Origin: Klebsiella phage KP13-16
Length of the DNA: 64,000 nucleotides
Reading direction: 5' to 3' (one strand)
Sequence record: OP617741.1
Positions 1-18,775 of the stretch are shown piece by piece; the first letter of the stretch is position 1, and the number at the start of each line of letters is the position of its first letter. The position numbers were made by a program, and so were the translations under genes. Below the pieces are notes generated by a model that saw nothing but the letters and a program-made list of their open reading frames with translations, was not told where the DNA came from and searched no databases.

Positions 1-48
1 TTGCAGTAATCAAAGTATTCCATACGTCAAAAGAGATATGCTTAATCA

Positions 49-324
49 TTATTTTTCTCCAGATGTTTTAAGATCTTGTAAGATTTCTTTGCCTAGTAAT
101 GAAAGTCTTATACTATACCAACTAGATTTAAGTTTCAAACAATCACTACAAAATTCTACTAGACCTTTTTTATAGAGCACAGGGATTGATTTACAGTTTA
201 CCCTATCTACGGAGTATCTTACACTTCGATCTTCTTCACCTTTGAGACCATCACCTCTCATGAAGTATCTTGTACCAGAATTCATTCTACGTAAAGTGTA
301 GATTTGTGCATCTGATAATTTCAT
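49..324 (-). CDS. hypothetical protein (91 aa)
   Basis: ORF track; compact packing with neighbours; no recognisable motif. Confidence 0.35.
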   Translation of the reverse strand: MKLSDAQIYTLRRMNSGTRYFMRGDGLKGEEDRSVRYSVDRVNCKSIPVLYKKGLVEFCSDCLKLKSSWYSIRLSLLGKEILQDLKTSGEK

Positions 325-326
325 TA

Positions 327-632
327 TTAAGCTGCTCCATTACAGGTAAAGAAAAAGTCATAGAATTCGGCTATGATTCCATCATCCATATAATCCTCAA
401 TACCACCTAGAGCACCATCCTCTTCCCAATTATCAAGGCCAGCCCTAGCACCTTTAAGTGCACAAGCCCAAGCTATCGCATACTGATCTTCTGAACAGTT
501 ATTCTTAATCTCATTGGCGTATTCAAATATCTTTGTAGCAGAGATTTCAGTAGTGAACTCATTAAAGATATTAAATTCTTCACTTTTGAAAATGAAATCT
601 TCTGCTTGAAAACCCAGTGTACGTTTCATCAA
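327..632 (-). CDS. hypothetical protein (101 aa)
   Basis: ORF track; no recognisable motif. Confidence 0.35.
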   Translation of the reverse strand: MMKRTLGFQAEDFIFKSEEFNIFNEFTTEISATKIFEYANEIKNNCSEDQYAIAWACALKGARAGLDNWEEDGALGGIEDYMDDGIIAEFYDFFFTCNGAA

Positions 633-676
633 TAAGCCCTCTTATGTTTTGATGAACTGATTATGCCACATTCAAA

Positions 677-1252
677 TCAAAAAGCAACACCTTTTTTAAA
701 GTTTCTTTCTATTGCTAGAGATGCCCTTGGTTCAGCAAGACCTGTACCATACACGTAAGGGATACCTTTTGGTGAGATTCTTTCTCCAAAACTTCCTAAC
801 TCTAAGTCTCCGTACATCACATCATAACCAATATCTGTTTGAATGATGTCTGTTTTTAGATCAAACTCTAGGAAAAACAGAGACATTCTTTTAGCCCAGA
901 AAACTGAATAATCTACTGGACCTTTAGGGTTATAATCAAAAATTTCTAATTTTAAAAAGATGTTAAAATGAGTCTCATCAAGAATTGGTTCGTCTCTATA
1001 ACAAGGCGTCAATGCAATAAGCGGTTTAATCCCATCTGTTATCTCTCCATCTTTCTCTAGCTGAAGGAAAGATTGTTCTGCACTGGCAACGTATTGTTTA
1101 CCATTGTAGTGTGTCATTCTACGATCTACAACACCAGGTGGACAAGTCCACTTCATAATATCTGGGTCCACTAAGTATGGTACGCTTGATAAAACACAAT
1201 CTGTGCTATACCAATCAATAGCTTTTTGAATCAAGTCGAGGTTTATGTTCAT
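677..1252 (-). CDS. class II aminoacyl-tRNA-synthetase-like catalytic core protein (AsnA/AspRS-type, truncated)
   Basis: motif-2-like CYRDE...HFNIFLKLEIF (cf. AspRS CFRDE...EFTQIDVE) and motif-3-like GTGLAEPRASLAIER; only 191 aa. Confidence 0.4.
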   Translation of the reverse strand: MNINLDLIQKAIDWYSTDCVLSSVPYLVDPDIMKWTCPPGVVDRRMTHYNGKQYVASAEQSFLQLEKDGEITDGIKPLIALTPCYRDEPILDETHFNIFLKLEIFDYNPKGPVDYSVFWAKRMSLFFLEFDLKTDIIQTDIGYDVMYGDLELGSFGERISPKGIPYVYGTGLAEPRASLAIERNFKKGVAF

Positions 1253-1500
1253 GATCGATGACCTTCTTTAAACGCACGTTTTGTGATATCTGAGAACTTT
1301 TTAAGATCTGCAATCTTCATGTCAGGAAAGTTTTCTTCCATGAAACCTTCAATAGCACCGTATAAATCAGAGAGTTCTACCAACATCATAATGTAGCTAC
1401 CTTGTTGATGTGCATCTAGAAGTTCTTCTACTTCCTCCTGAATCTTACCTAATGATCCATAACGACGTTTTTCAATTTCTTTAATGTGATAACCAGCCAT
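1249..1500 (-). CDS. MazG-like nucleotide pyrophosphohydrolase domain protein
   Basis: 83 aa; EEVEELLDA and LVELSDLYG helices typical of MazG/dUTPase-like all-alpha NTP-PPase. Confidence 0.5.
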   Translation of the reverse strand: MAGYHIKEIEKRRYGSLGKIQEEVEELLDAHQQGSYIMMLVELSDLYGAIEGFMEENFPDMKIADLKKFSDITKRAFKEGHRS

Positions 1501-1512
1501 TTTTAATCTCCA

Positions 1513-2022
1513 TTATGTATCTGATTTTGGAACATAGAAATCATGGTCTTTATAGCTTGCAACCTTTTTCATTGATTTTAACCAAGCTACTCTTGTACCT
1601 CTCTTGACATAAAAGATAGCACCTTTAGTTCGGTCGTGCAATACCCTCAGAGAAGGATCTTCATTCTCTAATAAAATCAAAAATTTAGCTAAGTTTTTAG
1701 CTTTATTCCAGGTGTCTTTTTCATAAATTCTTACAGGACTTCCTGTTAAGTATGAAAATTGATTCTTTTGATAAACTACTTTTTTGATTTTAGAGGGGTA
1801 ATCTTCATGATTTTTCCTATTTAAAATTACATTACCTACCATCAACATACCTTTTTCACCCTCTCCACGTGCCTCAGCATACATAGAGCACGCCAGAACG
1901 AGCGTGGTTGAATCTTTCTTAGTGCAGGTGTGTAATGGCTTATCTTTACTTGAAGTGCTCGCAGCAGCGTTCTGAAGCGCTAGTATCGCTGTCAACAAAA
2001 TCATTGGCAGTTTCTTTAGCAA
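1513..2022 (-). CDS. SleB/CwlJ-family cell wall hydrolase with signal peptide
   Basis: N-terminal signal peptide (MLKKLPMILLTAILALQNAAA); MYAEARGEG...GNVILNR...QKNQFS matches Hydrolase_2 (SleB) signature. Confidence 0.65.
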   Translation of the reverse strand: MLKKLPMILLTAILALQNAAASTSSKDKPLHTCTKKDSTTLVLACSMYAEARGEGEKGMLMVGNVILNRKNHEDYPSKIKKVVYQKNQFSYLTGSPVRIYEKDTWNKAKNLAKFLILLENEDPSLRVLHDRTKGAIFYVKRGTRVAWLKSMKKVASYKDHDFYVPKSDT

Positions 2023-2040
2023 AAGTCCTCCTTATATTTT

Positions 2041-2072
2041 AAAAATAGTAAAGGGGCAATTAGCCCCTTTTA
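2041..2072 (-). terminator. rho-independent terminator hairpin after telA
   Basis: AAAGGGGC-aatta-GCCCCTTT stem followed by U-run on minus strand. Confidence 0.55.
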
Positions 2073-2086
2073 GTCAATATAAAATT

Positions 2087-3163
2087 TTATACACTACGTA
2101 ATGCATCCTCCATATCTACCAAAGATTTTTCAATTTTTTTGGCATTTTCTTTACGTACATTATTACCATTCTTATCAATCTCTACAACTTCTTTTATAGA
2201 ATTGATAATGACATTAGTAGCTTCTACCATAATATCTACATCAGCAATCCCTCTTTGATTTGCTTTAGCTGAATCTACCATATTTTGTCCTACCTGTTTA
2301 GCAGTTTCTTGAATTAAGTTGTTAGTAAAATCATCCATAACTTTTGCTTGAGCAATTTGTTGTCGCTGATTTTCTGCGTTTAATGCCAGGGACATTTTCT
2401 TTTCCCAGTATGGGATTGTTAACTCAAGAATATCATTGAACTTATTCACATTATTGAAGTTGGTAACTTGCATCATACGTATCTCTGGTGCAGCAATAGC
2501 ACTCAGTTGGTGCATTTTATTTACTTTATCTGCTTGTTTACTTAGTGCATTAACTTTCATTCGAGTTTCTTCGATTTGATCTACAGAGGCATTTGTATTA
2601 ATTAAGTTTTGTAGGTAACTCTCAGCTTGTTCAAGTGCATCATTAACAAGAATTTTATTTTGCTCCCACATACGAACTTCTTCAAGGTTTGCCTTATACA
2701 TAGATTCTAACCACTTACCTTCTTCTTCCATTTCAATAAGTTTCGTCTTAAGGTTAGCTGCAACATCTGTAATTTGTTTACGCACAGTAGTAAATTGAGC
2801 TTTCACTTCAGCTTTACGATCAATAAACTTATTACGTAAACTTTTTAAGAAACCAACTTTGCCATCAGCTAAAGAACCAATATCTACTTTTTCAGATAGG
2901 GCCATAATTTGAGTAAAGCCTTGTGCCATTACACCACTATCTGCAACAAGAGTTTTAGATAAGATTTGATTATTAATTTCCGATTGTTTTGAATTTTTAA
3001 CAATACCAAAATTTTGAATTTCACTCAATTCCATTGCATAAGTATTACCTTCTGCATCTTTTAAAATAGGTAAAGATTTTACAGGCTGAGTAAATGTTGT
3101 AGAGTTTTTGTTTGCAACATTTTCAGCAGCTTGTGTTTTATTGAATAGATTACCATATGACAT
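2087..3163 (-). CDS. telA: TelA (toxic anion resistance) family protein
   Basis: 358 aa coiled-coil protein; GFLKSL...KF, IPYWEKKMSLAL, QRGIADVDIMVE align to TelA/YceH blocks (GFLSKLP, IPLWKNQIVIAL, ERGIIDIETL). Confidence 0.65.
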   Translation of the reverse strand: MSYGNLFNKTQAAENVANKNSTTFTQPVKSLPILKDAEGNTYAMELSEIQNFGIVKNSKQSEINNQILSKTLVADSGVMAQGFTQIMALSEKVDIGSLADGKVGFLKSLRNKFIDRKAEVKAQFTTVRKQITDVAANLKTKLIEMEEEGKWLESMYKANLEEVRMWEQNKILVNDALEQAESYLQNLINTNASVDQIEETRMKVNALSKQADKVNKMHQLSAIAAPEIRMMQVTNFNNVNKFNDILELTIPYWEKKMSLALNAENQRQQIAQAKVMDDFTNNLIQETAKQVGQNMVDSAKANQRGIADVDIMVEATNVIINSIKEVVEIDKNGNNVRKENAKKIEKSLVDMEDALRSV

Positions 3164-3173
3164 AATTTAATCC

Positions 3174-4052
3174 TCAAAGTTTATCAATATCATTAATCAC
3201 GTTAAGCGCTTCAGAATCTAAAGTGCTACTCATTAAGGTTTGGATCTTAGCATACAAAAATGGAATTGTCATGTTTTTTAAGTTCTCGTATGCTTCAAGA
3301 TCTTTCTCAAGAAGTTGGTAAGTATTTTTTAATTGCAATTCTGAAATACTTATTAAACCACTTACTTGTTTTAATTTCTCTAATCTAACAGTTCCCTTAA
3401 AATCATCACTATTTATCATGTAAGTTGCAGCAACAATAGCACACTCCAGGTCACTTTTTAAATCCAAAATTTTAGCTTCTATAGATCTCATTTCTGATTT
3501 TAAAAACATGCTGGTGTTATATTTGGACTTGTTCTTAAATTGTTCCAAGTTTAATTTAATCTCTTGGATAACTTCGGTAATAATTTCCTGAGTTAACTTA
3601 AACTCCTCATTAGAACCTAAAATACGTGATAGTAGGCTAGGCTTCTTTTGCGGTCCCTTTAACTTGGAAACAGTCTGTTTTATATCATTGAAGAGGGTTT
3701 GTACTTGAAGTCTGCCACTAGTAAATTCCATTGCTAAATCTAACTCACATTGTGAAACTTCTTGATTGATGGTAGTGAGTTTCTTGAAGTTATTATCAAA
3801 ATTATCTATCCAGCTTATCACAGCATGGGTACTAATTTTAGCATCAATAGTTTGAATATCTTTTACTCGTGCATCAATTTGTTTTTCAGGGAAAACTGAT
3901 TTTATTTTAGTAACTTCGGGAACAGATACCGAATTGCCAAATATATTTTTATATGACATGTTTGATTCCTGTTTAGTTTGTTTTTGACTGTCAGAGAACA
4001 GATTAGAATAATCTTTTTGTTTATTGAAAAGGTTTTTATAGTCTGCACTCAT
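3174..4052 (-). CDS. TelA-like paralog / coiled-coil protein
   Basis: 292 aa; N-terminal YKNLFNK repeats as in neighbour; C-terminal block IPFLYAKIQ resembles TelA IPLW block. Confidence 0.35.
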   Translation of the reverse strand: MSADYKNLFNKQKDYSNLFSDSQKQTKQESNMSYKNIFGNSVSVPEVTKIKSVFPEKQIDARVKDIQTIDAKISTHAVISWIDNFDNNFKKLTTINQEVSQCELDLAMEFTSGRLQVQTLFNDIKQTVSKLKGPQKKPSLLSRILGSNEEFKLTQEIITEVIQEIKLNLEQFKNKSKYNTSMFLKSEMRSIEAKILDLKSDLECAIVAATYMINSDDFKGTVRLEKLKQVSGLISISELQLKNTYQLLEKDLEAYENLKNMTIPFLYAKIQTLMSSTLDSEALNVINDIDKL

Positions 4053-4065
4053 TTTAATCCCCTCC

Positions 4066-4092
4066 TAATAAAAGGTGGGCATCGGCCCACCT
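4066..4092 (-). terminator. terminator hairpin after terD
   Basis: GGTGGGC-atcg-GCCCACC stem plus U-run on minus strand. Confidence 0.55.
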
Positions 4093-4109
4093 AACAGTTT
4101 AAAATGATC

Positions 4110-4691
4110 TTATTGTACTTGGTAAAGTTCAATCCAGTCAGCAATACTCTTAGGGTATGCTGTACTAACGTTCTCTACTTCAAAACCCGTATCCGTGCGA
4201 TTAACAACCACAAACAAGATAGATGTATCATTACTTGAGAAAGTATTCATCTTAATTTCTGCAAGAAGTTCGTCTGTTTCATGATTAAGAATACGAACCG
4301 TGCCATCTTTCATTTGAGAAAGGTTCTGTTTACGTTCCTTAGCCTTATGAAGATCAACAATAATTGGAATATGTTTACCTTTTTCAGGAACTTTATCTAG
4401 GGTAATCAGGAGAGATTCACCGCCATCATCCCCATTTAAATCATCTCCAGAACTTTTGATTGCTGGAGTTTCCTGTTGGTTGAAGAAACAAAAGTGTTTA
4501 GAACCATCCACAGCCTTATTATCTTTGTCTACAATAACTGCAATTACATCAAGATCATAATCATAGCTCTTAAAGAAAGAACTCGTTTTCTCTGGTGCGT
4601 CCCAAGTCATTTCAACACGCAATACTTTCAAATCAGATGCTTGAAATTTATCTAGTGACAGCTTAGAACCTTTATCCAGACTTAAAACCAT
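4110..4691 (-). CDS. terD: TerD-family stress response protein
   Basis: 193 aa; MVLSLDKGSKLSLDK N-terminus, DYDLDVIAV, GDDLNGDDGGE motifs of TerD/TerE/TerZ. Confidence 0.8.
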   Translation of the reverse strand: MVLSLDKGSKLSLDKFQASDLKVLRVEMTWDAPEKTSSFFKSYDYDLDVIAVIVDKDNKAVDGSKHFCFFNQQETPAIKSSGDDLNGDDGGESLLITLDKVPEKGKHIPIIVDLHKAKERKQNLSQMKDGTVRILNHETDELLAEIKMNTFSSNDTSILFVVVNRTDTGFEVENVSTAYPKSIADWIELYQVQ

Positions 4692-4753
4692 AATATTTTC
4701 TCCTGTTTTCGAGATTAAAAAGTGGCACTATCTCCAATAGTGCCTTTAACTAA

Positions 4754-5335
4754 TTAGTTAGTAAAAACACCTACCCATTCTTGAAAACTCTTATCATAAA
4801 ACTCATTTACTTGATTGTAAATAAAAGTTCCATCTGCTTGTTTCTCAAATACACCAACAAGAAGCGACTCATCTGTAGAAGAACCTTTTTCAGAGATATT
4901 ACAAGAACCAATAGTTTTACCTGAGTCAAGGTCACGAAGAACAACACTAGCACCATCTACCTGAGCAAAACTCTGATTTCGTGCTCGTGCATTGTAGATA
5001 TAAACCAAAACTGGAATACGATCTCCGTCTGAAGACACATTTTCAAGATTAATATCCAGGAACTCATCAACACCATCACCAATACCAGTTTGATTATCAG
5101 GGGAGACGTTAATTGCTTTAGTCTGTTTTTGCCCCCAGTATGCAACTTCACTAGCTGATACAGCTTGCAGATTTTCATTCTTACAGACTGCGCCAAGAAC
5201 ATCCAGATCAAAATCATGTGAAGATGAATTGGTATTAGGATTCCAGGATAACTCTACACGAACTCGTTTTAGTGGAGTTTTGCCATCTTCTTTAACCATT
5301 GGCAATGAAGAACCTTTTTCCAGATTAAGTGACAT
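4754..5335 (-). CDS. terD: TerD-family stress response protein
   Basis: 193 aa; DFDLDVLGA, GDGVDE, RARNQSFAQVDGA align closely to E. coli TerD (DFDLDASAF, GDGDDE, QARRQSFGQVSGA). Confidence 0.85.
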   Translation of the reverse strand: MSLNLEKGSSLPMVKEDGKTPLKRVRVELSWNPNTNSSSHDFDLDVLGAVCKNENLQAVSASEVAYWGQKQTKAINVSPDNQTGIGDGVDEFLDINLENVSSDGDRIPVLVYIYNARARNQSFAQVDGASVVLRDLDSGKTIGSCNISEKGSSTDESLLVGVFEKQADGTFIYNQVNEFYDKSFQEWVGVFTN

Positions 5336-5402
5336 ATTTATTTCCTCTCTTAGTTATTCAGTTTAAATATTATATTCAAAGTAAAATTTAAAGTCAACTC
5401 TT

Positions 5403-6116
5403 TTAGGAGACCTTATTAATCCATGCTGCAAGTTCACCATCAATGATTGCATTATACATTTGCTCATCACTAATATTTAGATTGTTAAAATTAACAAATC
5501 CTACATTATCATAACGTTCAGCAATCTCACGAAGGAAAGTGAAGTAGCTATCTGGACCAACACCTACTGTCATCCAATATACAGGCTCATCTTTGATACT
5601 ATCAAGTAGTCGCAAAGTCTCAACCCGATCACTGTTAGAACCATCGGTAATAAAGAAAACAAGTGCGGGAATATCTGAATCTGTTACAGGGACAGTTTTG
5701 GCTTTACCAAAACCAAACAGACCTTTCTTCTCTTCTTTTCCAAAGTAATGATGATGAATGTCTTTCATCACTGGAGCATAATTAGTACCACCCCACTCGT
5801 TTTTATATTTACCCTTCATGATGACGTTGGAGATGTATCCACCATAGTTTTTAGGTGTTGCAGGTTCAACCTCCATTGAGCGAGTATGGAATAGCCAAGT
5901 ATCAATAGTACCATCATCATCCATATTTGCAGAGACTGGGAGGAGTCGATCAACCAACTCTTCAAATTGACCATTACGATAGAAATCTTCTGCTGATCCA
6001 CTTTTATCCAGTGCAAGCGCTACACGGAGACAAATATCCTTGCGTTGAACACCAGCTTTTTCCAGGGACAGTTTTACAGTCTCAGTACGTTTCTCAAGTG
6101 ATAGTTTATTACTCAT
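5403..6116 (-). CDS. vWA-domain protein (TerY-like) with TerD-like N-terminal leader
   Basis: MIDAS DxSxS motif (LALDKSGSA), FFITDGSNSD; N-terminal KLSLEKRTETVKLSLEK resembles TerD N-termini. Confidence 0.55.
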   Translation of the reverse strand: MSNKLSLEKRTETVKLSLEKAGVQRKDICLRVALALDKSGSAEDFYRNGQFEELVDRLLPVSANMDDDGTIDTWLFHTRSMEVEPATPKNYGGYISNVIMKGKYKNEWGGTNYAPVMKDIHHHYFGKEEKKGLFGFGKAKTVPVTDSDIPALVFFITDGSNSDRVETLRLLDSIKDEPVYWMTVGVGPDSYFTFLREIAERYDNVGFVNFNNLNISDEQMYNAIIDGELAAWINKVS

Positions 6117-6136
6117 ATTAGTGTTTCTCCTCTAAA

Positions 6137-6469
6137 TTAACAAATAAAGCCTGTTACAACTACATAATCAATATCTAAAGATTTTACATCTAAGATATCT
6201 TGATAGTCAATCTTATTTTTAAGATATTTTCCTACTTCACTATCCTGCACACCATATTTACTATACTCTTCCTTGTCAGCCCAAGTAGTCTCACCGTATA
6301 GCTTATAGTACCACCGTGTACAATTGTCAAGAATTTCTTCATTCTCTTCTGCATTAATATAGTGTCCATGAATGACGCTCAGATTTTTGATCTCTTCAGA
6401 ATCAGAAGTTTCAAGAACAAAAAGATCTGTTGTTTCTGGAATATTTTCATAGATAATTAAAAACTTCAT
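6137..6469 (-). CDS. hypothetical protein (110 aa)
   Basis: ORF track. Confidence 0.35.
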   Translation of the reverse strand: MKFLIIYENIPETTDLFVLETSDSEEIKNLSVIHGHYINAEENEEILDNCTRWYYKLYGETTWADKEEYSKYGVQDSEVGKYLKNKIDYQDILDVKSLDIDYVVVTGFIC

Positions 6470-6481
6470 TTCTCTTCCTTT

Positions 6482-6856
6482 TTAATCACAAGAACTTGAT
6501 GAACTAGAGTCACAACTCCCACTACTATAGCTTCCACCATCATCACTACTAGAATATGAACTCTGAATAATTGCATTATGCACGTAGGTATCATCAATGT
6601 CAACAGTTTTACTTGAAGAAATGTTCCTTACAGAATTTGCTATGGTACTTTTAACTCTTTGAGTTTCTATAAGATGCTTTTTCATAGCAGAGGGATCTGG
6701 AATTTTAGTCTGATAGACACCTCCTAAACACTCAGTCTTTTTCACAGTAGATTGTGAGACATTGATCTTATTTCCACTACCAAAGCTTACTACAGAAGCA
6801 CTGGAATTACTAGATTTAAAAAGAGATTTAAACCAAGTGAAAAATTTCTTAATCAT
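6482..6856 (-). CDS. hypothetical protein with Ser-rich low-complexity C-terminus
   Basis: ORF track; C-term SSYSSSDDGGSYSSGSCDSSSSSSCD; start trimmed to MIKKFF. Confidence 0.3.
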   Translation of the reverse strand: MIKKFFTWFKSLFKSSNSSASVVSFGSGNKINVSQSTVKKTECLGGVYQTKIPDPSAMKKHLIETQRVKSTIANSVRNISSSKTVDIDDTYVHNAIIQSSYSSSDDGGSYSSGSCDSSSSSSCD

Positions 6857-7118
6857 GGTCTTTTCCTTTGTAAACATTACCAAGATAAATGAGATTATCT
6901 TTTTTAATATGATCTGTCAACTCTTCTGGTGAAAAATTATAAGCATACCCTACACCACAAAGATAAACTGCATTGATCCCAACTTCTTTTACAAAAAGAT
7001 AGTGATCTGGAGCTGAAAGGAGTCTTCGTTGATTTGGCACTAACCAACAACCATCACCTTTACCTGTAAAGACATCACCAACTTCAAAAACATATTGTTC
7101 AACAATCTTCATCTTCAA
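6849..7118 (-). CDS. hypothetical protein (89 aa)
   Basis: ORF track. Confidence 0.3.
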   Translation of the reverse strand: MKMKIVEQYVFEVGDVFTGKGDGCWLVPNQRRLLSAPDHYLFVKEVGINAVYLCGVGYAYNFSPEELTDHIKKDNLIYLGNVYKGKDHD

Positions 7119-7302
7119 CCTCTTGACCTAATAATTGTTCATACCAATTGACATAATCTTTCGCCATTTCATATAAATTTTCCGCAGAGTTTTGCTCACT
7201 TTGTGAAAAATCTTCAATTGACTCTGCGTTGCCAATTGCATCAAGACATTGACGAAAATCACCTTCTGTATTTCTAAATTGGCAATAGCTCATGTTGGGC
7301 AT
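7099..7302 (-). CDS. hypothetical acidic protein (67 aa)
   Basis: ORF track. Confidence 0.3.
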   Translation of the reverse strand: MPNMSYCQFRNTEGDFRQCLDAIGNAESIEDFSQSEQNSAENLYEMAKDYVNWYEQLLGQEVEDEDC

Positions 7303-7348
7303 TTAACTCTCCTTTTAACCGTATCTAAAAAGCTTGTACGAATCATAG

Positions 7349-8599
7349 TTAATCCTCACACTTTAAAAGAAATTTATTATTAATAACTTTAAAATGAATC
7401 GTTTGATTATTCACTTTATTAATACTTTTATATACATCGCCTTCGGCAATCTTATGTTTGATTGAGGAATGGTCTGCTGATTTCAATGCATCTTGAATAG
7501 AATGATACTCATCAAAGAAGTATACGATATCTCCTTGTGGGACAGTTGTCAACCCGAGAGTTGCACAAAATTCTAAGAAATCACTATCATCCAGAAAACA
7601 TTTGTTATCAATGTCCCATACACGAAAAGCATAAAACTGATGTTCTTCCAACTCTTCACGATTCCCTTGAATACCAGGACCCATACACTCACCTTGAATA
7701 GCAAGTTGACGATTATGCTGTACACAATAATCTTTAAGACGTGCAGGAATATCATCTTTTAATGCTGCTTTCCAAAAATGTGACTCTGGATCAAATTTTA
7801 GTGCCAGATTACGGGAACAAACAGAAATTTGACCATCTTCCCATTGGAAAGGATAAGGCTTCACTTCTACAATATCAAGTTCTCCAGTCTCTGCATTCCA
7901 TTCACGTACCTCATCATCCACTTTTTCAACATAGAATTCAGGATTACTCATAAAAGCAATAGTTTGACTAGAACCATCTAACTTAAGTGATTTACGAAAA
8001 CCAACACCTTTCATCGTTTGGGAATACTTACCAAAAACATTTTGAATACGCTCTTCGTCTGTTTTTGGGATGACAATGGGAAAGTTTCCAGCAGATTTAC
8101 AGTTTTGCAACCCTGTGCCACCATTGCGTTCATCTGGTCTTTCGTATTTTGTTACGTTAAGAAACTCTTCAAGTCCATGACGAGATTCTTCTAGCTCCTC
8201 TAATAATTCTGCCATTGCAGTTTCTACTGAAATAGGATCATCATTATCTTGCCAGATAACAGTTAATAATTCATTCCAGAATGATGAAACTGGGAGTGCC
8301 AAACCTTGTGAAACAACGCCACGAAGTTTTTTAGTCCGAAGCCGAAAACGTTCAACATTTTTATCATCCACTTTGCAGGAACTTCCTGCTAAAAATGCAA
8401 ATTGTTTTGTTTGCACTGGGACGAAAGAATCAATTTCGAAGAAGACACAATAATCTCCGATTTGAAATTCTCCTTTCTTTACTACTACGTCCCAACCATC
8501 TACTGTAGCTTTTACAATAAGATCAGCACCTTCAATAGCTTCAATGTTGTTAATCTTACGGATAGTAACTAAACGACGACCTTCAGTAACTAAATTCAT
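7349..8599 (-). CDS. ATP-dependent RNA ligase with N-terminal OB-fold domain (Rnl-family)
   Basis: nucleotidyltransferase motif I KLDGSS (KxDG), downstream FYAFRVWDID and IQGECMG motif III/IV-like; N-terminal ~110 aa OB-like (Trbp111-type) domain. Confidence 0.55.
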   Translation of the reverse strand: MNLVTEGRRLVTIRKINNIEAIEGADLIVKATVDGWDVVVKKGEFQIGDYCVFFEIDSFVPVQTKQFAFLAGSSCKVDDKNVERFRLRTKKLRGVVSQGLALPVSSFWNELLTVIWQDNDDPISVETAMAELLEELEESRHGLEEFLNVTKYERPDERNGGTGLQNCKSAGNFPIVIPKTDEERIQNVFGKYSQTMKGVGFRKSLKLDGSSQTIAFMSNPEFYVEKVDDEVREWNAETGELDIVEVKPYPFQWEDGQISVCSRNLALKFDPESHFWKAALKDDIPARLKDYCVQHNRQLAIQGECMGPGIQGNREELEEHQFYAFRVWDIDNKCFLDDSDFLEFCATLGLTTVPQGDIVYFFDEYHSIQDALKSADHSSIKHKIAEGDVYKSINKVNNQTIHFKVINNKFLLKCED

Positions 8600-8671
8600 T
8601 TCAACCCCTCATTTTAAATGTGTTTCTCTCAACAAGACAAACTATAAAGCTTGTCTTAGTAAAAGTCAACA

Positions 8672-9037
8672 TTATTCTACTACAGGAACTTCAAAATTAA
8701 CTTCTACATCTTTTTCTTCATCCCAGAAGAACAACGACCATGTTCTAGGAACATCTACTTTAGCATTGGGCGATGTCCAGAATTCAACAAATGTGACGTT
8801 TTCCACTTGACCATCCATGCTTGAAGCAAAAACCATTTCTAAACGTTTCACAGGTATGACTTCACCTGCACCTGTTCCACAACAGGCAACAATTCCTTTT
8901 GGAAGAACCAGATCAGGAACTTTTAGGATTTGAATATTAGCCCCAGGATATCTTTTCTGAAGGAATGTTAAAGCATTTTCTTCATCTAGACTCCAAGCAT
9001 ATTCTTCCATTTCATCAAAAATATCATTCATATTCAA
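8672..9037 (-). CDS. hypothetical protein (121 aa)
   Basis: ORF track. Confidence 0.35.
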   Translation of the reverse strand: MNMNDIFDEMEEYAWSLDEENALTFLQKRYPGANIQILKVPDLVLPKGIVACCGTGAGEVIPVKRLEMVFASSMDGQVENVTFVEFWTSPNAKVDVPRTWSLFFWDEEKDVEVNFEVPVVE

Positions 9038-9045
9038 GCTTCCTT

Positions 9046-9072
9046 TTTAAACTAAAGCCCCTTTCGGGGCTA
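9046..9072 (-). terminator. terminator hairpin after terC
   Basis: AGCCCC-tttc-GGGGCT stem plus U-rich tail on minus strand. Confidence 0.5.
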
Positions 9073-9075
9073 ATC

Positions 9076-10053
9076 TCAAGCTTCTTTTTTCTCAGGAAAA
9101 ACCAGACTTGCAATAATACCCAAGGCCAGAGTCCCAAGCACAATACAAAGACTCACATTTGCTGAGATATCATGTGGCAAGAAAGACCATTTTGCATTTA
9201 GTGTCTCACCAAAAGGATGGTAAATCAGTTTAGCACCTACAAACACTAGAACTACAGCAACGGCTTTTTCCAGATGAACCAAGTATTTAACTGCTACACT
9301 CAGTACAAAGAACAGTGCACGGAGACCAAGAATTGCAAATAACATTGCAGAGTAAACCAGCAGAGGTTCTTGCGTCACACCAATTACAGCCGGGACAGAG
9401 TCAAAGGAGAAAATTACATCAGTAAACTCCACTACAAAGACACACAACAAAGCCGGAGTTGCATACTTGATCCCGTTCTTAATGGTGATAAATTTCTCGC
9501 CATCTAGAGCCGGATGAACAGGAAGAATCTTACCAACCAGACGAGTCGCCCAGTGTTTAGAGTAATCAACTTCATCTTCCTCATCATCACCGCCTTTGAT
9601 AATAGCCAGTGCAGACCATGCTACAATCAGACCGAACAGCACTTGGAAAAACCAGTGTAAATTAAAGATTGCCGTACCTGCTGCCACAAAGATACCTCGA
9701 AATACAATGGCACCAGCAATACCCCAAAGAAGAATCTTATGCTGTAAGTGTGTTGATTTGATCCCGAAGCTAGCGAATATTGCCATGAACACCATCAAGT
9801 TATCCACAGACAATGATTTTTCTAGCACATACCCACTCAGAAACAAAGAGGCAAATTCTTTGCCATACTCTACCCAAATAAAACCATAGTATGCAAATGC
9901 TAATGCGATCCAAAATGCAGACCAAGCCAATGCAGACTTAATACCGATCTCTTTATTTTCCTTGTGTCCAAAGAAATCTACAAGGATTGATAGTGCAAGA
10001 ACTCCAACAAGAACTGCAATATCCAGAAGGGGGAACCCAAAATGATGTGTCAC
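9076..10053 (-). CDS. terC: TerC-family integral membrane protein
   Basis: 325 aa multi-TM; conserved EKSLSVDNLMVF and EFTDVIFSFDSVPAV repeats typical of TerC/Alx. Confidence 0.75.
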   Translation of the reverse strand: MTHHFGFPLLDIAVLVGVLALSILVDFFGHKENKEIGIKSALAWSAFWIALAFAYYGFIWVEYGKEFASLFLSGYVLEKSLSVDNLMVFMAIFASFGIKSTHLQHKILLWGIAGAIVFRGIFVAAGTAIFNLHWFFQVLFGLIVAWSALAIIKGGDDEEDEVDYSKHWATRLVGKILPVHPALDGEKFITIKNGIKYATPALLCVFVVEFTDVIFSFDSVPAVIGVTQEPLLVYSAMLFAILGLRALFFVLSVAVKYLVHLEKAVAVVLVFVGAKLIYHPFGETLNAKWSFLPHDISANVSLCIVLGTLALGIIASLVFPEKKEA

Positions 10054-10081
10054 TATTTTACTCTCCTCAGTTTAAAATAAA

Positions 10082-10288
10082 TTATTTTTGCTTATCAAAA
10101 CAGTACATTGCGTTACTACCTGCATCATTATACACAATATAACAGAATTTTCCATTAATATCATCATTCATGATGTAAATCTTGTTAACAGCAGAGTAGC
10201 CGTTGTACACTCGTTCAACTGTAACGCTATCTTCAGCCATTGTCAAACTACAAAACAGGATCAGACAAAGAGCCATCATTATTTTCAT
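10082..10288 (-). CDS. small secreted protein
   Basis: 68 aa, N-terminal signal peptide. Confidence 0.3.
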   Translation of the reverse strand: MKIMMALCLILFCSLTMAEDSVTVERVYNGYSAVNKIYIMNDDINGKFCYIVYNDAGSNAMYCFDKQK

Positions 10289-10439
10289 TTAACACCTCAA
10301 TTATCGTTTGTTTACATTTACCACAACAAGTGGCGACTGGTATATATCTTTGCACATCCTCTAATGACTTGCAAGAAAAATCTTTTATAACTTTTTGTAG
10401 CATTTTGTCATTAATTTTATTACAAAGACATATAAACAT
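10248..10439 (-). CDS. bfd: BFD-like [2Fe-2S]-binding domain protein (bacterioferritin-associated ferredoxin-like)
   Basis: 63 aa; MFICLCNKINDKML...CKSLEDVQ...TCCGKC matches Bfd CxC...CxxC pattern. Confidence 0.6.
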   Translation of the reverse strand: MFICLCNKINDKMLQKVIKDFSCKSLEDVQRYIPVATCCGKCKQTIIEVLNENNDGSLSDPVL

Positions 10440-10458
10440 AAGACCGCCGTATATTTAA

Positions 10459-10725
10459 TTATGAAGAACCTAGAAATCCTTTCTTCCAAGGATCTGCTTC
10501 ACTGGAGTTTGGAGTATATTCACTTTCTTCTTCAACATAAAGTATACCCATAAACTCAAATGATCGGGTATCGCCTTTGTATGCTGGCTCTTTTTGAGTA
10601 ACAACCCAAGTTGTGACATTCTCACAAACTTTTTCCAACAGAAGGTGATAAGCCAATCGTGGAAGTTTAATAACACGTTTTTGATTTGTATAATGGATCA
10701 TATTTACCTCATTCATAAGTATCAA
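10459..10725 (-). CDS. hypothetical protein (88 aa)
   Basis: ORF track. Confidence 0.3.
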   Translation of the reverse strand: MILMNEVNMIHYTNQKRVIKLPRLAYHLLLEKVCENVTTWVVTQKEPAYKGDTRSFEFMGILYVEEESEYTPNSSEADPWKKGFLGSS

Positions 10726-11122
10726 AATTTTCTGTCTTTAAAGTTTTTTCTAAATTGTTTAACATCTCTTCAGAAATATTTTTACTTTCTTGCATTTTCA
10801 GAAAGACAATCATTGCTGCACGAAGAGAATTCTTATCATTAAAACTGATATCAGAATTATTAGTATCATAACATAACCAATAACTAGGCTCATCAGTAAT
10901 CATCGGGGCTGATACTGTGATGTTATTGTTGTAGATAATATCCCATGCATCTGCGGGATTATTACAAGGATTGAAAACAAGCAAAGATCCATCTTTCCAG
11001 TAGCATAGATTACTGTAATTTTCATCAAGATCCGCCCATTCAAGCTTAATGACGTCTCCAACTCTTTTATTAATCTCAAAATCACTCATTCTGCTGTAAT
11101 CAGTATTGCTCATAAGCTTCAT
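10709..11122 (-). CDS. hypothetical protein (137 aa)
   Basis: ORF track. Confidence 0.35.
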   Translation of the reverse strand: MKLMSNTDYSRMSDFEINKRVGDVIKLEWADLDENYSNLCYWKDGSLLVFNPCNNPADAWDIIYNNNITVSAPMITDEPSYWLCYDTNNSDISFNDKNSLRAAMIVFLKMQESKNISEEMLNNLEKTLKTENFDTYE

Positions 11123-11288
11123 CTTCTCTGTAAGTTAAGACTCTATCTTGTGAGATTAGAGCTTTTGTTTTAGCTTTTATTACCAATCTCTTACAACGAA
11201 AGAGTGTAGTGTGGTCTTCTGGCAACCACAAACTCATCGCAACATAAGCGCCATAGTAGTAAAAGAACTCTTGCCATACCTCTTTCAT
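11100..11288 (-). CDS. hypothetical protein (62 aa)
   Basis: ORF track. Confidence 0.25.
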   Translation of the reverse strand: MKEVWQEFFYYYGAYVAMSLWLPEDHTTLFRCKRLVIKAKTKALISQDRVLTYREDEAYEQY

Positions 11289-11297
11289 TATATCACC

Positions 11298-11681
11298 TTA
11301 ATTTATTGAATTTGATTGTGATTTTATTACTTCTGCATGTATGCACCAACCATTTTCATATCTCTGAAGCAAATATTTCTTATTCCAAGGGTTAAAAGAT
11401 AAAATCTCATTTTTGACTTTCTTAATAACCTTGTAAACTCCAAAAAGATTGGTGGTATCATGGAAATGGTTTAACATTTCATAGTGGCAAGATAACCATT
11501 CCACTTCACTCATCTTTTGCAACGGTTCATAAAATGAATGTGCACCATTATTTCCATTTACATGTTGGATAAGAAAATATGTATTCCCTCTCTTCAAATC
11601 TTCATAACCACCAAGAACAATGTTAAAATTGTAAATATTGTTCAGTACATGGATTTCTAAATCAGCTTTCCCACTTACCAT
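11298..11681 (-). CDS. hypothetical protein (127 aa)
   Basis: ORF track. Confidence 0.35.
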   Translation of the reverse strand: MVSGKADLEIHVLNNIYNFNIVLGGYEDLKRGNTYFLIQHVNGNNGAHSFYEPLQKMSEVEWLSCHYEMLNHFHDTTNLFGVYKVIKKVKNEILSFNPWNKKYLLQRYENGWCIHAEVIKSQSNSIN

Positions 11682-12141
11682 TAACTTTTCTCCATAAAAC
11701 TTGGTTATCAGATCCCCTAAAAGGTTTCTTTGTAGGAAGGTTTTTCACAAACTTCCCATCTATGATGACATCCACTGTATCCAGTATTTGAGCATAAAGC
11801 AAGTTATTTTTTATCTCTTGCATTGTTTGCCCACACCACAGCCAAATACTCTTTTCTGGCATCTCTTGTTTAACAGAATAGCAAAGCTTTAACACTGTGT
11901 CAAAATTTTTTCTTTCTAAAGGGTTTCCTCCCAAGATGCTTAACCCATTAATAAAAGGTTTTTTCAAATCTTTCAACAAGTTGTCTTGAAAATCTTTAGT
12001 AAAAGGTTGCCCATAGTTATAGTTCCATGTCTCTTTGTTGAAGCATCCTTCACAACCTTGTGAACACCCAGAAACAAAAAGGGAGCACCTGGCTCCCTCT
12101 CCATTAACCAAGTCACCAAAAATGTAACCTGAATAATTCAT
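11662..12141 (-). CDS. nrdG: anaerobic ribonucleotide reductase activating protein (radical SAM)
   Basis: 159 aa; CSQGCEGC (Cx3Cx2C) radical-SAM cluster motif near N-terminus, size and context next to nrdD. Confidence 0.85.
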   Translation of the reverse strand: MNYSGYIFGDLVNGEGARCSLFVSGCSQGCEGCFNKETWNYNYGQPFTKDFQDNLLKDLKKPFINGLSILGGNPLERKNFDTVLKLCYSVKQEMPEKSIWLWCGQTMQEIKNNLLYAQILDTVDVIIDGKFVKNLPTKKPFRGSDNQVLWRKVNGKWES

Positions 12142-12296
12142 TACTGCTCCCGATAGTCATCCAATGCATTTGCAATAGTTTCAATAGGATCATGTTCTTG
12201 ATTAATGATCTCATAAATGCTTTCTGCACTCGCATAGTAACCATCATCTCCAAAGTACCAAGCTAAGGCTGTCATAATTTCTTCATATGCACTCAT
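12141..12296 (-). CDS. small acidic hypothetical protein (51 aa)
   Basis: below ORF-track cutoff; strong RBS AGGAGG; stop overlaps nrdG start (TAATG). Confidence 0.3.
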   Translation of the reverse strand: MSAYEEIMTALAWYFGDDGYYASAESIYEIINQEHDPIETIANALDDYREQ

Positions 12297-12305
12297 AAAC
12301 ACCTC

Positions 12306-12596
12306 CTAATAACAGAACCTTGCACCACAAGTAGTACATACCGCACCACCTCTATGAGCACTACCCACGTTCAGATGAATGCAATCGGCAGCACCGTACC
12401 AAAGGTCATTATTCTTTTTATATGCTTCAATAATGGCAGAATAGCCATCTATATAGTTTTCTTTGCCATCAGTAAGATCTATATACTGAAAGTAGTTTTC
12501 ACCGATACCACGCATCCAGTTAATAGCTTCTAAGATAGTTTCAAACTCTCTATATCTCTCAAAAGTATCCATTAACTGGTAGTTAACAATCACCAT
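12306..12596 (-). CDS. hypothetical protein with C-terminal Cys cluster
   Basis: 96 aa; ends CTTCGARFCY. Confidence 0.35.
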   Translation of the reverse strand: MVIVNYQLMDTFERYREFETILEAINWMRGIGENYFQYIDLTDGKENYIDGYSAIIEAYKKNNDLWYGAADCIHLNVGSAHRGGAVCTTCGARFCY

Positions 12597-12600
12597 AAAA

Positions 12601-14721
12601 TTAAACCCTTATATGTTTTACACGTTGAACAACTTCCTGCATCTTCCCCTTGTTAAAAGGTCTACTGTTAGGTGCAGATAAGTAACCTGAGACTCTCCGA
12701 ATGACGTTGATCGTTCCTTCCTCAGTATTGCCACAATCAGGGCATTCAAAGCCTTCTGCTGTTGCTTTAAACTCTCCATGAAAGCCACACTTCAGACATT
12801 TATCAACAGGTTGATTAATCCCAAAGTAATGAATATTTTCATATCCATAGTCAATCAAAGCTTCCAAGCCTTTCATGTTATTTTTGAGATTTGGTGTCTC
12901 GACATAACCTATATTACCACCTGAACTGATAAAGTCAAACCCTGATTCAACATCCCATTTAGTAAAAGGATCAACTTGTTGGTCTACAGGAACATGGAAA
13001 GAGTTAGTCAAGTATTCTCTCTTGATAGTTCCAGGAAATTTCGCATTGATTTTACTGGCAAATTTATAACACAAAGACTCCGCTGGAGTTCCGTAGATAC
13101 CAAAACCAATACCTGTTTTCTTCTTATAAGCCTCTGCCATTTCTGACATAAGACTTAAAATCTTTTTCCCGTAAGCTTTATATTCCTCTAAACTACAATT
13201 TGGATAGAGAATTTGAATTGCTTCATATAACCCTACATAACCAAAACTTGCTGAAGCATAACCTTTGTAGAAAAGTTTGTCAATAGTTTCTTCAGGATCT
13301 AGTCTAGCTAATGCTCCTTCAACAAACATCACAGGATTTTGTTTTGCTTTAGTTCCCTTAAGGCGATTAATCCTCAACATATGTGCTTCATATGCTGTTT
13401 GCATATGCTTATAGAGTTCTTCCAGGAAAAGTTTACCACTACTGACAGAATCTTTAGCTATCATTGGTAAATTCAAAGAAACTACACCAAGATTAAATCT
13501 ACCATCATATTTCTCACCTTGTTCTGTAGCAAAATAAGAAAGGAAACTACGACATCCCATGCTAGTAACGTGACCTTTTGAAGATTTTGTAACCAGTTTA
13601 TTTCTAGGGACTGAAATAAAATCTGGGTAAATTCTTTCTGCACAACACTCCATTGCTAATTGTTTAAGGTCATAATTAGGATCACCAGGATTCATGTTGA
13701 CACCTTCTTCAAGGAAGAAAATTACTTTTGGGAACACAGGCGTTACTTTATCCTTACCTAAACCCTCTTTGTGGATTTTTAGATAGTTACGAGTAATCAT
13801 TCTACCAAATTCTGAGGTATCTAAACCAAGACTAATGGTGATAAATGGAGATTGTCCATTTACACTCATTAATGTGTTAACCTGGTAGATAAGAGTTTGC
13901 ATTGCATCGTAGACATCTTGCTCTGTAAGTTGCATTGCATTTATTTTGACTTCAGCACCAAATAAATTTCTAATAAGTTTTACATTTTTATTATAAGTCA
14001 GTTCTACATATTGCTTTAAACCTGTATCAATATGTGCGCAAGTTTGTCCACCATATTGGCTAGAGGCTACAGCCTGAATAATTTGTGTCAACACTGTAGT
14101 AGCAACACCAATTGATTTAGGTTTTTCAATGAAAGCATTTCCAATATGGAAACCATTTTCTAACATGTCTTGGTAATTAACGAGACAACAGTTGCTGAGA
14201 GGGCTGATTAGATAATCTAAGTCATGAATATGTCCAAAACCGCTTGTATGCCATTCTGAGAGGTCTTTAGGTAGTATTTGAGTCAATGCTACATGCTTAC
14301 TTAAAATCCCTGCTAAGAGGTCTCTATGAGTATTTACAACGTTACTGGGTTTGTTAGCATTCTCACGAGTAAATTCTTCTGCTGTTTGTTCTAAGAAGCC
14401 AGATATGTCATTATAAAGTTTCCCATTACCTTCACGGATTTTATCTCTGTCGTGCCTATACTCAATATAAGTTCTGGCTATGTCATATGTCTTTGGATTA
14501 GACATAAGGAAATCTTCAATCATTTTTTGAACATTTGAGACTGACTTATTCTCATTGAGATTTTTAACAATATATTCTGTAACCTCGTGAGCAACAAGTT
14601 CTGCTGTGATTGATAATGAAGAGTTAGCTAGTGCTGCTTGATATATTGCATTGTAAACTTTACGTTCATCAAATTGTTCTGTGCGCCCGTCGCGTTTTAT
14701 AATTTTATGTTGATACTGCAT
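12601..14721 (-). CDS. nrdD: anaerobic ribonucleoside-triphosphate reductase (glycyl radical enzyme)
   Basis: C-terminal glycyl radical motif RVSGYL, Zn-ribbon CPDCG...C; start trimmed to MQYQHKIIKRDG with RBS GGAGG (ORF-track start at 14748 reads through upstream hairpin). Confidence 0.9.
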   Translation of the reverse strand: MQYQHKIIKRDGRTEQFDERKVYNAIYQAALANSSLSITAELVAHEVTEYIVKNLNENKSVSNVQKMIEDFLMSNPKTYDIARTYIEYRHDRDKIREGNGKLYNDISGFLEQTAEEFTRENANKPSNVVNTHRDLLAGILSKHVALTQILPKDLSEWHTSGFGHIHDLDYLISPLSNCCLVNYQDMLENGFHIGNAFIEKPKSIGVATTVLTQIIQAVASSQYGGQTCAHIDTGLKQYVELTYNKNVKLIRNLFGAEVKINAMQLTEQDVYDAMQTLIYQVNTLMSVNGQSPFITISLGLDTSEFGRMITRNYLKIHKEGLGKDKVTPVFPKVIFFLEEGVNMNPGDPNYDLKQLAMECCAERIYPDFISVPRNKLVTKSSKGHVTSMGCRSFLSYFATEQGEKYDGRFNLGVVSLNLPMIAKDSVSSGKLFLEELYKHMQTAYEAHMLRINRLKGTKAKQNPVMFVEGALARLDPEETIDKLFYKGYASASFGYVGLYEAIQILYPNCSLEEYKAYGKKILSLMSEMAEAYKKKTGIGFGIYGTPAESLCYKFASKINAKFPGTIKREYLTNSFHVPVDQQVDPFTKWDVESGFDFISSGGNIGYVETPNLKNNMKGLEALIDYGYENIHYFGINQPVDKCLKCGFHGEFKATAEGFECPDCGNTEEGTINVIRRVSGYLSAPNSRPFNKGKMQEVVQRVKHIRV

Positions 14722-14737
14722 TATTCCTCCAAAATAA

Positions 14738-14760
14738 GAAGCCAGCATTAACTGGCTTAA
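14738..14760 (-). terminator. terminator/stem-loop between yqeY-like gene and nrdD
   Basis: AAGCCAG-ttaatgc-TGGCTT hairpin followed by U-rich tract on minus strand. Confidence 0.45.
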
Positions 14761-18656: not shown

Positions 18657-18775
18657 ATTCTATTTACCTATACGATCAATTAAAGTTAAGTCCAATACCA
18701 CCGGAAGGAATAACAACCATCCAGGATAATCTTCTTGAAATAAGTGTCTTAAGACAATATAACTAATTACTGTAA

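Follow-up and report, generated by a model that had tools for sequence, protein, structure and literature searches.

The tellurite-type (Ter) stress-response genes are known from bacterial chromosomes and plasmids as well as from virulent phages, and in the present work we compare these systems with a Ter gene cluster at positions 677-10439 of a 64,000-nt stretch of Klebsiella phage KP13-16 (sequence record OP617741.1; the whole stretch is called the window in the following). The closest described system is that of the Klebsiella phage vB_KpM_FBKp34 (Stephanstirmvirinae), for which terC (gp124), terF-vWA (gp131), terD (gp132/133) and telA (gp135) have been reported, together with the occurrence of such Ter sets in virulent phages (Estrada Bonilla et al. 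2021, section 3.5; PMC8386662). Other publications discuss virulent and jumbo phages that carry Ter genes (PMC7824862, PMC9796965), and the virulent Pseudomonas phage PhiPsa374 has terC, terD, terF and telA (PMC9796965). We will show that the window carries a Ter core cluster of this kind in contiguous phage DNA, and that only some of the genes lying among and around the Ter genes are conserved together with them. In this identification of the cluster, and in the separation of its real from its incidental partners, we have high confidence.

Among the bacterial systems, the yceCDEFGH operon genes of Bacillus subtilis combine TerD paralogues, TerC and TelA without TerB, under envelope-stress control. 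Unlike the phage cluster, they are bacterial and governed by extracytoplasmic function sigma factors, and they include no vWA protein and none of the phage proteins TelA2, SleB or PRTase_3 described below. The plasmid and chromosomal terZABCDEF (+terWXY) and telAB/klaAB systems (R478, Klebsiella virulence plasmids) share the TerC, TerD-domain, TerF-type vWA and TelA families with the phage, and the phage TerC and TerD paralogues correspond to the minimal functional unit reported, which consists of TerC and TerD (PMC12054061). The phage cluster differs from the plasmid systems in that it lacks TerB (no match to this family among the 20 open reading frames (ORFs) scanned with Pfam, 19 of them spanning 327-11681 and one at 49-324), TerW/X/Y, kinase/phosphatase and ATP-grasp genes, in that its TelA shares the cluster with a phage-specific TelA2, in its phage-like composition, and in what appear to be several short units instead of one operon. 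The gene set is a Ter core without TerB. An earlier reading of the letters of the window (the original prediction) had called it complete, which is overstated, as TerB was not found and the PRTase_3 and HAD genes lie outside the window.

The Ter proteins, and the two window proteins found to be conserved beside them, are the following.

9076-10053, (-) strand: TerC/Alx-family integral membrane protein, 325 aa (PF03741, 5e-41; NCBIfam TIGR03718, 5e-96, 321.8 bits against a cut-off of 246.4)
5403-6116, (-) strand: TerF-type vWA protein (PF10138, 2.6e-38, 132.6 bits against a cut-off of 29.4)
4754-5335, (-) strand: TerD-a, 193 aa, bearing a Ca2+ motif (PF02342, 4.7e-26; match to 2KXT, 2e-17)
4110-4691, (-) strand: TerD-b, 193 aa (PF02342, 4.1e-32; match to 2KXT, 9e-16)
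3174-4052, (-) strand: TelA2, a TelA-associated long-helical protein (AlphaFold2 model all-helical, pLDDT 81.5; no Pfam match)
2087-3163, (-) strand: TelA, 358 aa (PF05816, 8e-35, 120.9 bits against a cut-off of 30; PHROG 5890 'tellurite resistance', 1.6e-61)
1513-2022, (-) strand: secreted SleB-type cell-wall hydrolase (Hydrolase_2; PF07486, 9.5e-20)

All the ORFs listed in the original prediction are present at their coordinates, and all are on the (-) strand, like every other ORF from 49 to 14,748. Profile searches recover every Ter family that had been named, that is, TelA, two TerD proteins, a vWA/TerY-like protein, which is of the TerF type, and TerC, co-directional within 8 kb. In tblastn searches with the window proteins against 50,697 phage records, TelA was found in 124 of them, TerD in 34, vWA in 241 and TerC in 174. 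Each family is thus rare among phages, and since all four nevertheless lie within 8 kb in the window, their clustering is not a matter of chance.

Six loci were compared with the window, namely FBKp34, the Phapecoctavirus ESCO5 and the Xanthomonas jumbo phage XaC1 (L001, L007 and L010, respectively, in our numbering), and the metagenomic contigs L014, L015 and L016, which have TelA2 homologues. The region is a Ter core cluster in the contiguous DNA of an FBKp34-like Stephanstirmvirinae phage. It is 97.6% identical to FBKp34 at the nucleotide level over 83% of its length (98.5% at positions 1-6488, then 93.5% at positions 8621-10439), the gene order is the same, and the Ter proteins are 98-100% identical; the differences are an RNA-ligase cassette in place of gp126-127 and an extra 133-aa ORF. 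Because the remainder of the window is collinear with FBKp34 as well, the DNA is contiguous and not a chimera. For bacterial contamination or a chimeric assembly as the explanation of the block, a possibility raised along with the original prediction, nothing was found in favour, and the collinearity of the whole 64 kb, the uniform GC content (31-42% all along the window) and the recurrence of the arrangement in the independent assemblies L014, L015 and L016 all speak against it. It can be considered as already refuted, with a negligible probability left to it. The GC content of the Ter block, 33.6% compared to 35.6% for the whole window, is also phage-like. The phage does therefore bring a Ter-type membrane/stress module of its own, as had been proposed. 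What does not hold is that this should be unusual in a virulent phage, since the same cluster has been published for the 97.6%-identical FBKp34 (PMC8386662) and others have been described (PMC7824862, PMC9796965). The observation is real but already in the literature for FBKp34, although TelA2 (gp134), SleB, HAD and PRTase_3 are not named in the conserved set of that description.

The gene order TerC ... vWA-TerD-TerD-TelA2-TelA-Hydrolase_2 ... HAD ... PRTase_3 is found in all three metagenomic contigs, and the conserved phage skeleton can, on the basis of gene order, be written as TerC ... vWA-TerD-TerD-TelA2-TelA-SleB ... HAD-PRTase_3. The same four Ter families occur in other virulent phages, namely ESCO5 (Phapecoctavirus), Otagovirus (PhiPsa374/267), Caulobacter jumbo phages and Acinetobacter ME3 (PMC7824862, PMC9796965), but in these the gene order differs and the identities are 20-40%, except for TerC with 87%. 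In ESCO5, for example, the slot from NrdDG to the primase contains HAD-PRTase-phosphatase-TerC, TelA, vWA, a TerD-like gene and SleB; compared to the window, its NrdD is 65% and its other Ter proteins are 20-40% identical. In ESCO5 and PhiPsa267, BLASTP (E 1e-3) detected homologues neither of TelA2 nor of the second TerD.

The Xanthomonas jumbo phage XaC1 presents a different case. Here, TerD-TerD-TelA2-TelA (XaC1_431-434) are collinear with the window, with amino acid identities of 76/70/56/65%, a nucleotide identity of ca 69% over 3.2 kb, and a vWA gene 1.5 kb upstream. Unlike the window, XaC1 has a 349-kb genome and belongs to another lineage, and there is no TerC, SleB, HAD or PRTase_3 within 10 kb of the block. 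The collinearity of the block at these identities points to a TerD-TerD-TelA2-TelA cassette that is exchanged between distant phage lineages. The Rak2-like phage XbC2 keeps only the TelA2→TelA pair.

TelA2 had been described in the original prediction as a divergent TelA paralogue, which the searches do not bear out. Neither TelA2 itself nor any of the 26 relatives recovered from 1.84 billion representative proteins has a TelA Pfam match, the BLASTP comparison of TelA2 with TelA gives an E value of 0.32, hhalign against the TelA alignment gives a probability of 37%, and the fold matches are to generic helical bundles. The gene is immediately upstream of TelA in every case (XbC2, XaC1, L014, L015 and L016). 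TelA2 is best regarded as a separate, phage-restricted helical family, whose kinship to TelA is unproven.

The comparison with L014 gives a further indication concerning this protein. While the nucleotide identity between the window and L014 is 95-100% across vWA, TerD-a, TelA and SleB, it falls to 63-81% at ca 4570-3300, a stretch that takes in the whole of TelA2 and, of TerD-b, the C-terminal two-thirds. This pattern is that of an allele swap, and the TerD-b/TelA2 segment is a recombination and diversification hotspot, with TelA2 as the fastest-evolving member of the Ter block. Because of the swap, TerD-b/TelA2 can be marked as the variable component of the system, and so is probably the one that specifies interactions. 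The hotspot and the four-gene block shared with XaC1 are new details, and they are incremental ones.

Concerning the other Ter proteins, TerC (9076-10053) is 87% identical to that of ESCO5 (L007 4303-5277), but its identity to the TerC encoded in the ter operon of Klebsiella/IncHI2 plasmids is only 47-48%, a level at which terC occurs in 1,054 Klebsiella plasmid records. Because of this difference, TerC can be placed in a phage-circulating clade. A recent capture of the gene from the host was considered and rejected, given the 48% identity to plasmid TerC and a GC content of 39% in the 2-kb segment holding TerC. The 87% identity to the TerC of an E. coli Phapecoctavirus would reflect either a recent exchange or an unusually strong constraint on phage TerC. 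No yybP-ykoY Mn riboswitch was found upstream of TerC, nor any other Rfam family in positions 1-12,000 (both at E <= 1), and no tRNA genes were found in the window. The vWA protein, which is kept in 6/6 compared Ter loci, displays the residues DKSGS...T...TDG (DxSxS...T...D), which we read as an intact site of the metal ion-dependent adhesion site (MIDAS) type. TerD-a retains DNQTGIGDGVDE, aligned to DNRTGEGDGDDE of 2KXT, the solved K. pneumoniae TerD; we take this segment of 2KXT to be the Ca2+-binding site.

The SleB-type hydrolase is the only partner listed in the original prediction that is consistently conserved beside the Ter block. Its assignment as a secreted protein agrees with the Pfam match and with a signal-peptide-like N-terminus in the translation (MLKKLPMILLTAILALQNAAAS). 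The gene is located directly downstream of TelA in FBKp34, L014, L015 and L016, and ESCO5 has it in the corresponding slot. Past window position 1, the FBKp34 sequence continues with two small ORFs, and then with the HAD phosphatase-like gp141 and the PRTase_3 gp142 (PF15610, 1.5e-52; the HAD match of gp141 is weak, E 0.016). Both genes are outside the window itself, and both are kept in ESCO5, where HAD-PRTase-phosphatase is directly upstream of TerC, as well as in L014, L015 and L016. From these gene orders, the true conserved partners are TelA2, the SleB-type hydrolase, HAD and PRTase_3, of which the last two and TelA2 had been missed as such in the original prediction.

The following transcription signals were located around the Ter genes.

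5369-5397, (-) strand: sigma-70-like promoter TTGACT-17-TATAAT before the TerD pair (11/12 consensus matches; an FBKp34 promoter is annotated there)
9056-9071, (-) strand: terminator-like hairpin directly after TerC (consensus scan, pattern match only; 6-pair stem, 5 GC)
4724-4744, (-) strand: terminator-like hairpin after TerD-a (consensus scan)
4073-4092, (-) strand: strong terminator-like hairpin after the TerD pair, i.e. after TerD-b (8-pair stem, 6 GC, T-run; an FBKp34 terminator is annotated there)
2050-2070, (-) strand: terminator-like hairpin after TelA (consensus scan; an FBKp34 terminator is annotated there)

Several of these signals coincide with the annotation of FBKp34. Together they suggest a division of the genes into a number of short units, transcribed by the host RNA polymerase.

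The genes interleaved with the Ter genes, or adjacent to them, had been taken as their functional partners. Those considered here are given below.

7349-8599, (-) strand: DraRnl (DRB0094)-type RNA ligase with an N-terminal OB domain (TIGR02306, 5e-67; PF21189 and PF09414)
677-1252, (-) strand: 191-aa minimal class II aminoacyl-tRNA synthetase (aaRS)-like catalytic core (structure prediction and class II motifs)
1249-1500, (-) strand: 83-aa all-alpha nucleoside triphosphate pyrophosphatase (NTP-PPase)-like protein of the MazG/HisE superfamily (weak PRA-PH match)
10248-10439, (-) strand: Bfd-like [2Fe-2S] protein, 63 aa (PF04324, Fer2_BFD, 2e-11)

The identities proposed for these proteins are largely confirmed. 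For the OB-fold RNA ligase, all three models are above cut-off (for TIGR02306, 226 bits compared to 151), and the translation contains LKLDG, the KxDG nucleotidyl-transferase motif. The PF04324 match likewise supports the Bfd-like [2Fe-2S] protein. The 191-aa protein has no Pfam or NCBIfam match, and a single-sequence search of the PDB was null, but it has 142 homologues of ca 190 aa in which the class II motifs TPCYRDE and GTGLAEPR are near-invariant, and the family profile matches seryl-tRNA synthetase (SerRS) at 1.4e-5. The 191-aa protein consists of the catalytic core throughout, without a tRNA/anticodon-binding domain, and the public names conflict (SerRS, histidyl-tRNA synthetase, hypothetical). 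With motifs 1-3 on the predicted fold, ORF 677-1252 can be assigned as a minimal class II aaRS core, in agreement with the truncated core of the original prediction. The MazG assignment of the 83-aa protein, on the other hand, holds weakly and at the superfamily level, as the PRA-PH score of 15.5 bits is under the Pfam cut-off of 21.3. The same weak match is given by 26/32 homologues (best E 1.7e-4), while no PDB match was obtained with either the single sequence or the family profile. E22, E23, E26, D29, E42 and D45 are invariant in the family and form paired acidic ExxE...ExxD metal-binding motifs, which we take to be a trait of the MazG/HisE superfamily. The protein is probably an all-alpha NTP pyrophosphatase, at the superfamily level only.

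The gene-neighbourhood comparison does not link these genes to Ter. The RNA-ligase cassette (window 7315-8620) takes the place of 428 bp of small ORFs (gp126-127) in FBKp34, and the ligase is absent from FBKp34, L014, L015, L016 and the ESCO5 slot. Its closest homologues (79% amino acid identity) are in Rak2-like jumbo phages, ca 150 kb from the TelA genes of these phages, and in Klebsiella phage 05F01 the ligase is 33 kb from the vWA gene. It is a strain-specific cassette and not a partner of Ter. In four unrelated phage contexts (L002, L005, L011 and L013), the aaRS-like gene is next to the NTP-PPase gene or fused to it, while a fifth context (L012) has the two one gene apart, and in 5/5 of these contexts no Ter Pfam match was found within 7-10 kb of the pair. 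ESCO5, L015 and L016 likewise lack the pair in their Ter slots, and by these arrangements it is an independent two-gene module. Bfd is present only in FBKp34 and L014 among the compared loci, with no homologue in the Ter slots of ESCO5, L015 and L016. As judged from such distributions, the ligase, the aaRS-like/NTP-PPase pair and Bfd are unrelated auxiliary genes of a hypervariable early-gene region, and because they are not conserved with the Ter skeleton, the mix of partners is largely accidental.

This bears directly on the model of the original prediction, in which the Ter, RNA-ligase, Bfd, SleB, MazG-like and aaRS-like genes make up one integrated module. The genes are indeed co-directional and within 10 kb, and published comparative genomics, as cited in PMC7824862, ties Ter to nucleotide-metabolite and nucleic-acid-processing genes. 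In view of a ligase that is missing from the relatives and distant from Ter in jumbo phages, a pair that travels without Ter in five unrelated phage contexts, a Bfd confined to the closest relatives, and the terminator-like hairpins between the units, however, we consider this model to be very improbable.

Some observations on the aaRS-like/NTP-PPase pair can be added. It is located at 677-1500 (-) in the window, at 9202-10606 in L002, 9747-10558 in L005, 6735-7588 in L011 and 6753-7756 in L013. The two genes often overlap at start and stop, and in L002 they are fused, with the NTP-PPase upstream. Large phages that are not related to one another, among them a Vibrio phage of 349 kb, conserve the pair at 42-54% amino acid identity. 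A connection to RNA repair was considered, as RlaP is near the pair in 2/5 contexts, but it is absent in the other three and the idea was not adopted.

Four further small ORFs are found in the region.

8672-9037, (-) strand: 121-aa protein beside TerC (PHROG 27498, 3.5e-26)
6482-6883, (-) strand: 133-aa Ser-rich ORF (DUF7206, 5e-5, below cut-off)
6137-6469, (-) strand: 110-aa protein upstream of vWA (PHROG 4658, 7e-20; kept in FBKp34 and L014)
10082-10288, (-) strand: 68-aa ORF with a signal-peptide-like N-terminus, MKIMMALCLILFCSLTMA (from translation)

A homologue of the 121-aa protein is directly downstream of TerC in ESCO5 (46% identity) and one gene further in L014 (88%), while none is present in L015 and L016. 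The C-terminus of the 133-aa ORF is extremely rich in Ser, Asp and Cys (...SSYSSSDDGGSYSSGSCDSSSSSSCD). The ORF is absent from FBKp34, where a 369-bp segment (window 6489-6857) has no counterpart, and it has a homologue in L014; no exact direct repeat of >= 8 bp was found to flank the segment. The 68-aa ORF, which is directly upstream of TerC and is kept in FBKp34 and L014, has 41 nt in common with the 3' end of the Bfd gene.

Further indels or replacements relative to FBKp34 (L001) are seen at window positions 10440-10525 and 10832-11069, in addition to 7315-8620. Because of these several small differences, the early-gene region of the window gives the picture of a mosaic of swappable cassettes. 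The NrdD ORF also differs, with 715 aa in the window (12601-14748) and 1005 aa in FBKp34 (L001 16776-19793). An in-frame piece of ca 900 bp of the FBKp34 gene (L001 ca 18369-19269) has no counterpart in the window, and looks like an intein or another insertion in FBKp34.

We now turn our attention to the possible function of the phage Ter complex. By analogy with the bacterial systems, we favour a mechanism of membrane and metal protection together with superinfection exclusion, to which we assign slightly less than an even chance. The Ter proteins would be made early in infection, as the consensus promoter matches may indicate, and would build a membrane-associated complex like that of the bacterial and plasmid ter/telA genes. 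In this complex, TerC would export divalent metals (Mn/Zn) across the inner membrane. Both TerD proteins, with their Ca2+ motif, and the vWA protein, with its MIDAS motif, would serve as metal-dependent sensor/adaptor proteins in the cytoplasm, and TelA and TelA2 would be long-helical sub-membrane proteins, while PRTase_3/HAD would make a nucleoside-like ligand. The net effect would be to shield the inner membrane and the metal balance of the infected cell from secondary phages, from colicins that form pores, and from oxidising or metal stress. By excluding superinfection and protecting the envelope, a phenotype as known for plasmid ter, the phage would safeguard its burst. In K. pneumoniae, terC has a part in resistance to Zn, Mn, Te and phages (PMC12054061), and superinfection exclusion has been proposed for phage Ter systems (PMC7824862). 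The retained Ca2+-site motif of TerD-a and MIDAS motif of the vWA protein count in favour of the mechanism, and the rapid, recombination-driven divergence of TerD-b/TelA2 within DNA that is otherwise 95-100% identical is consistent with the two proteins being at a conflict interface. A number of points weigh against it. We found no experimental work on a Ter gene of any phage, and a literature search for papers since 2020 that link tellurite resistance and TerD with anti-phage activity returned none. The authors of the PhiPsa374 study state that the Ter function is not known and that tellurium resistance is unlikely (PMC9796965), and TerB, which is absent here, is part of the proposed bacterial TerC-TerB core (PMC12054061). 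The PADLOC 2.0 defence models gave no match among the ten largest proteins of the region, the match of TerC to a 2TM effector being non-significant (E 0.008). The physical complex and the metabolite are suggested by analogy with published comparative genomics, and the expression timing by consensus promoter matches only, of which 49 were found compared to 39 ± 6 in shuffled sequence, so that they are barely enriched.

Two other functions were weighed against this mechanism. In one of them, the module would tune Mn/Zn/Ca for phage enzymes (anaerobic ribonucleotide reductase, nucleases), or TerC would metalate or help to export the SleB hydrolase, with no exclusion of competitors. Literature cited in PMC12054061 has TerC proteins exporting Mn and metalating secreted enzymes. 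The phage TerC is of the TerC/Alx metal-homeostasis subfamily, TerD has its Ca2+-binding motif, and no other non-Ter gene is linked as consistently as that of the secreted SleB-type hydrolase. However, we know of no metal requirement of SleB-type hydrolases, XaC1 retains TerD-TerD-TelA2-TelA without TerC or SleB within 10 kb, there would be no obvious role for TelA, TelA2 and vWA, and the fast divergence of TelA2 would be left unexplained. We consider this metal-homeostasis role to be unlikely. The other function is counter-defence, in which the phage Ter proteins would mimic, titrate or poison a host plasmid Ter system, or its nucleoside-like signal, that restricts Klebsiella phages. Host terC does lower the plaque size of Klebsiella phages (PMC12054061), a terC 47-48% identical to that of the phage is carried in 1,054 Klebsiella plasmid records, and a fast-diversifying TerD-b/TelA2 would suit an arms-race interface. 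On the other hand, phages of E. coli K-12, Pseudomonas syringae, Xanthomonas and Caulobacter also have homologous clusters, and a ter operon is not shown here for any of these hosts. A phage that supplies the full set, including a membrane component and metabolite enzymes, would seem to have a functioning system and not a decoy. We judge counter-defence to be quite improbable.

Returning to membrane protection and superinfection exclusion, a broader reading can be formulated that would also cover the passenger pair. In it, vWA-TerD-TerD-TelA2-TelA with TerC, SleB and PRTase_3/HAD would be a horizontally exchanged phage membrane-conflict system (superinfection exclusion or anti-abortive infection), the specificity of which is set by the co-swapped TerD-b/TelA2, with TelA2 as a previously unnamed family of TelA partners. 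Separately, the NTP-PPase and the aaRS core would be a widespread two-enzyme phage module that makes or edits a product of the aminoacyl-adenylate type. Taken as a whole, we find this reading conceivable but doubtful.

Few stress genes of bacteria are as widespread as the Ter genes, and the window adds no new kind of system to them. The comparison does part a conserved skeleton (TerC, vWA, 2×TerD, TelA2, TelA, SleB, HAD and PRTase_3) from the passengers, and it brings out a compact four-gene cassette that is common to a 140-kb Klebsiella phage and a 349-kb Xanthomonas phage. A genetically tractable Klebsiella phage with this cluster would be a reasonable model for assigning the function of Ter.

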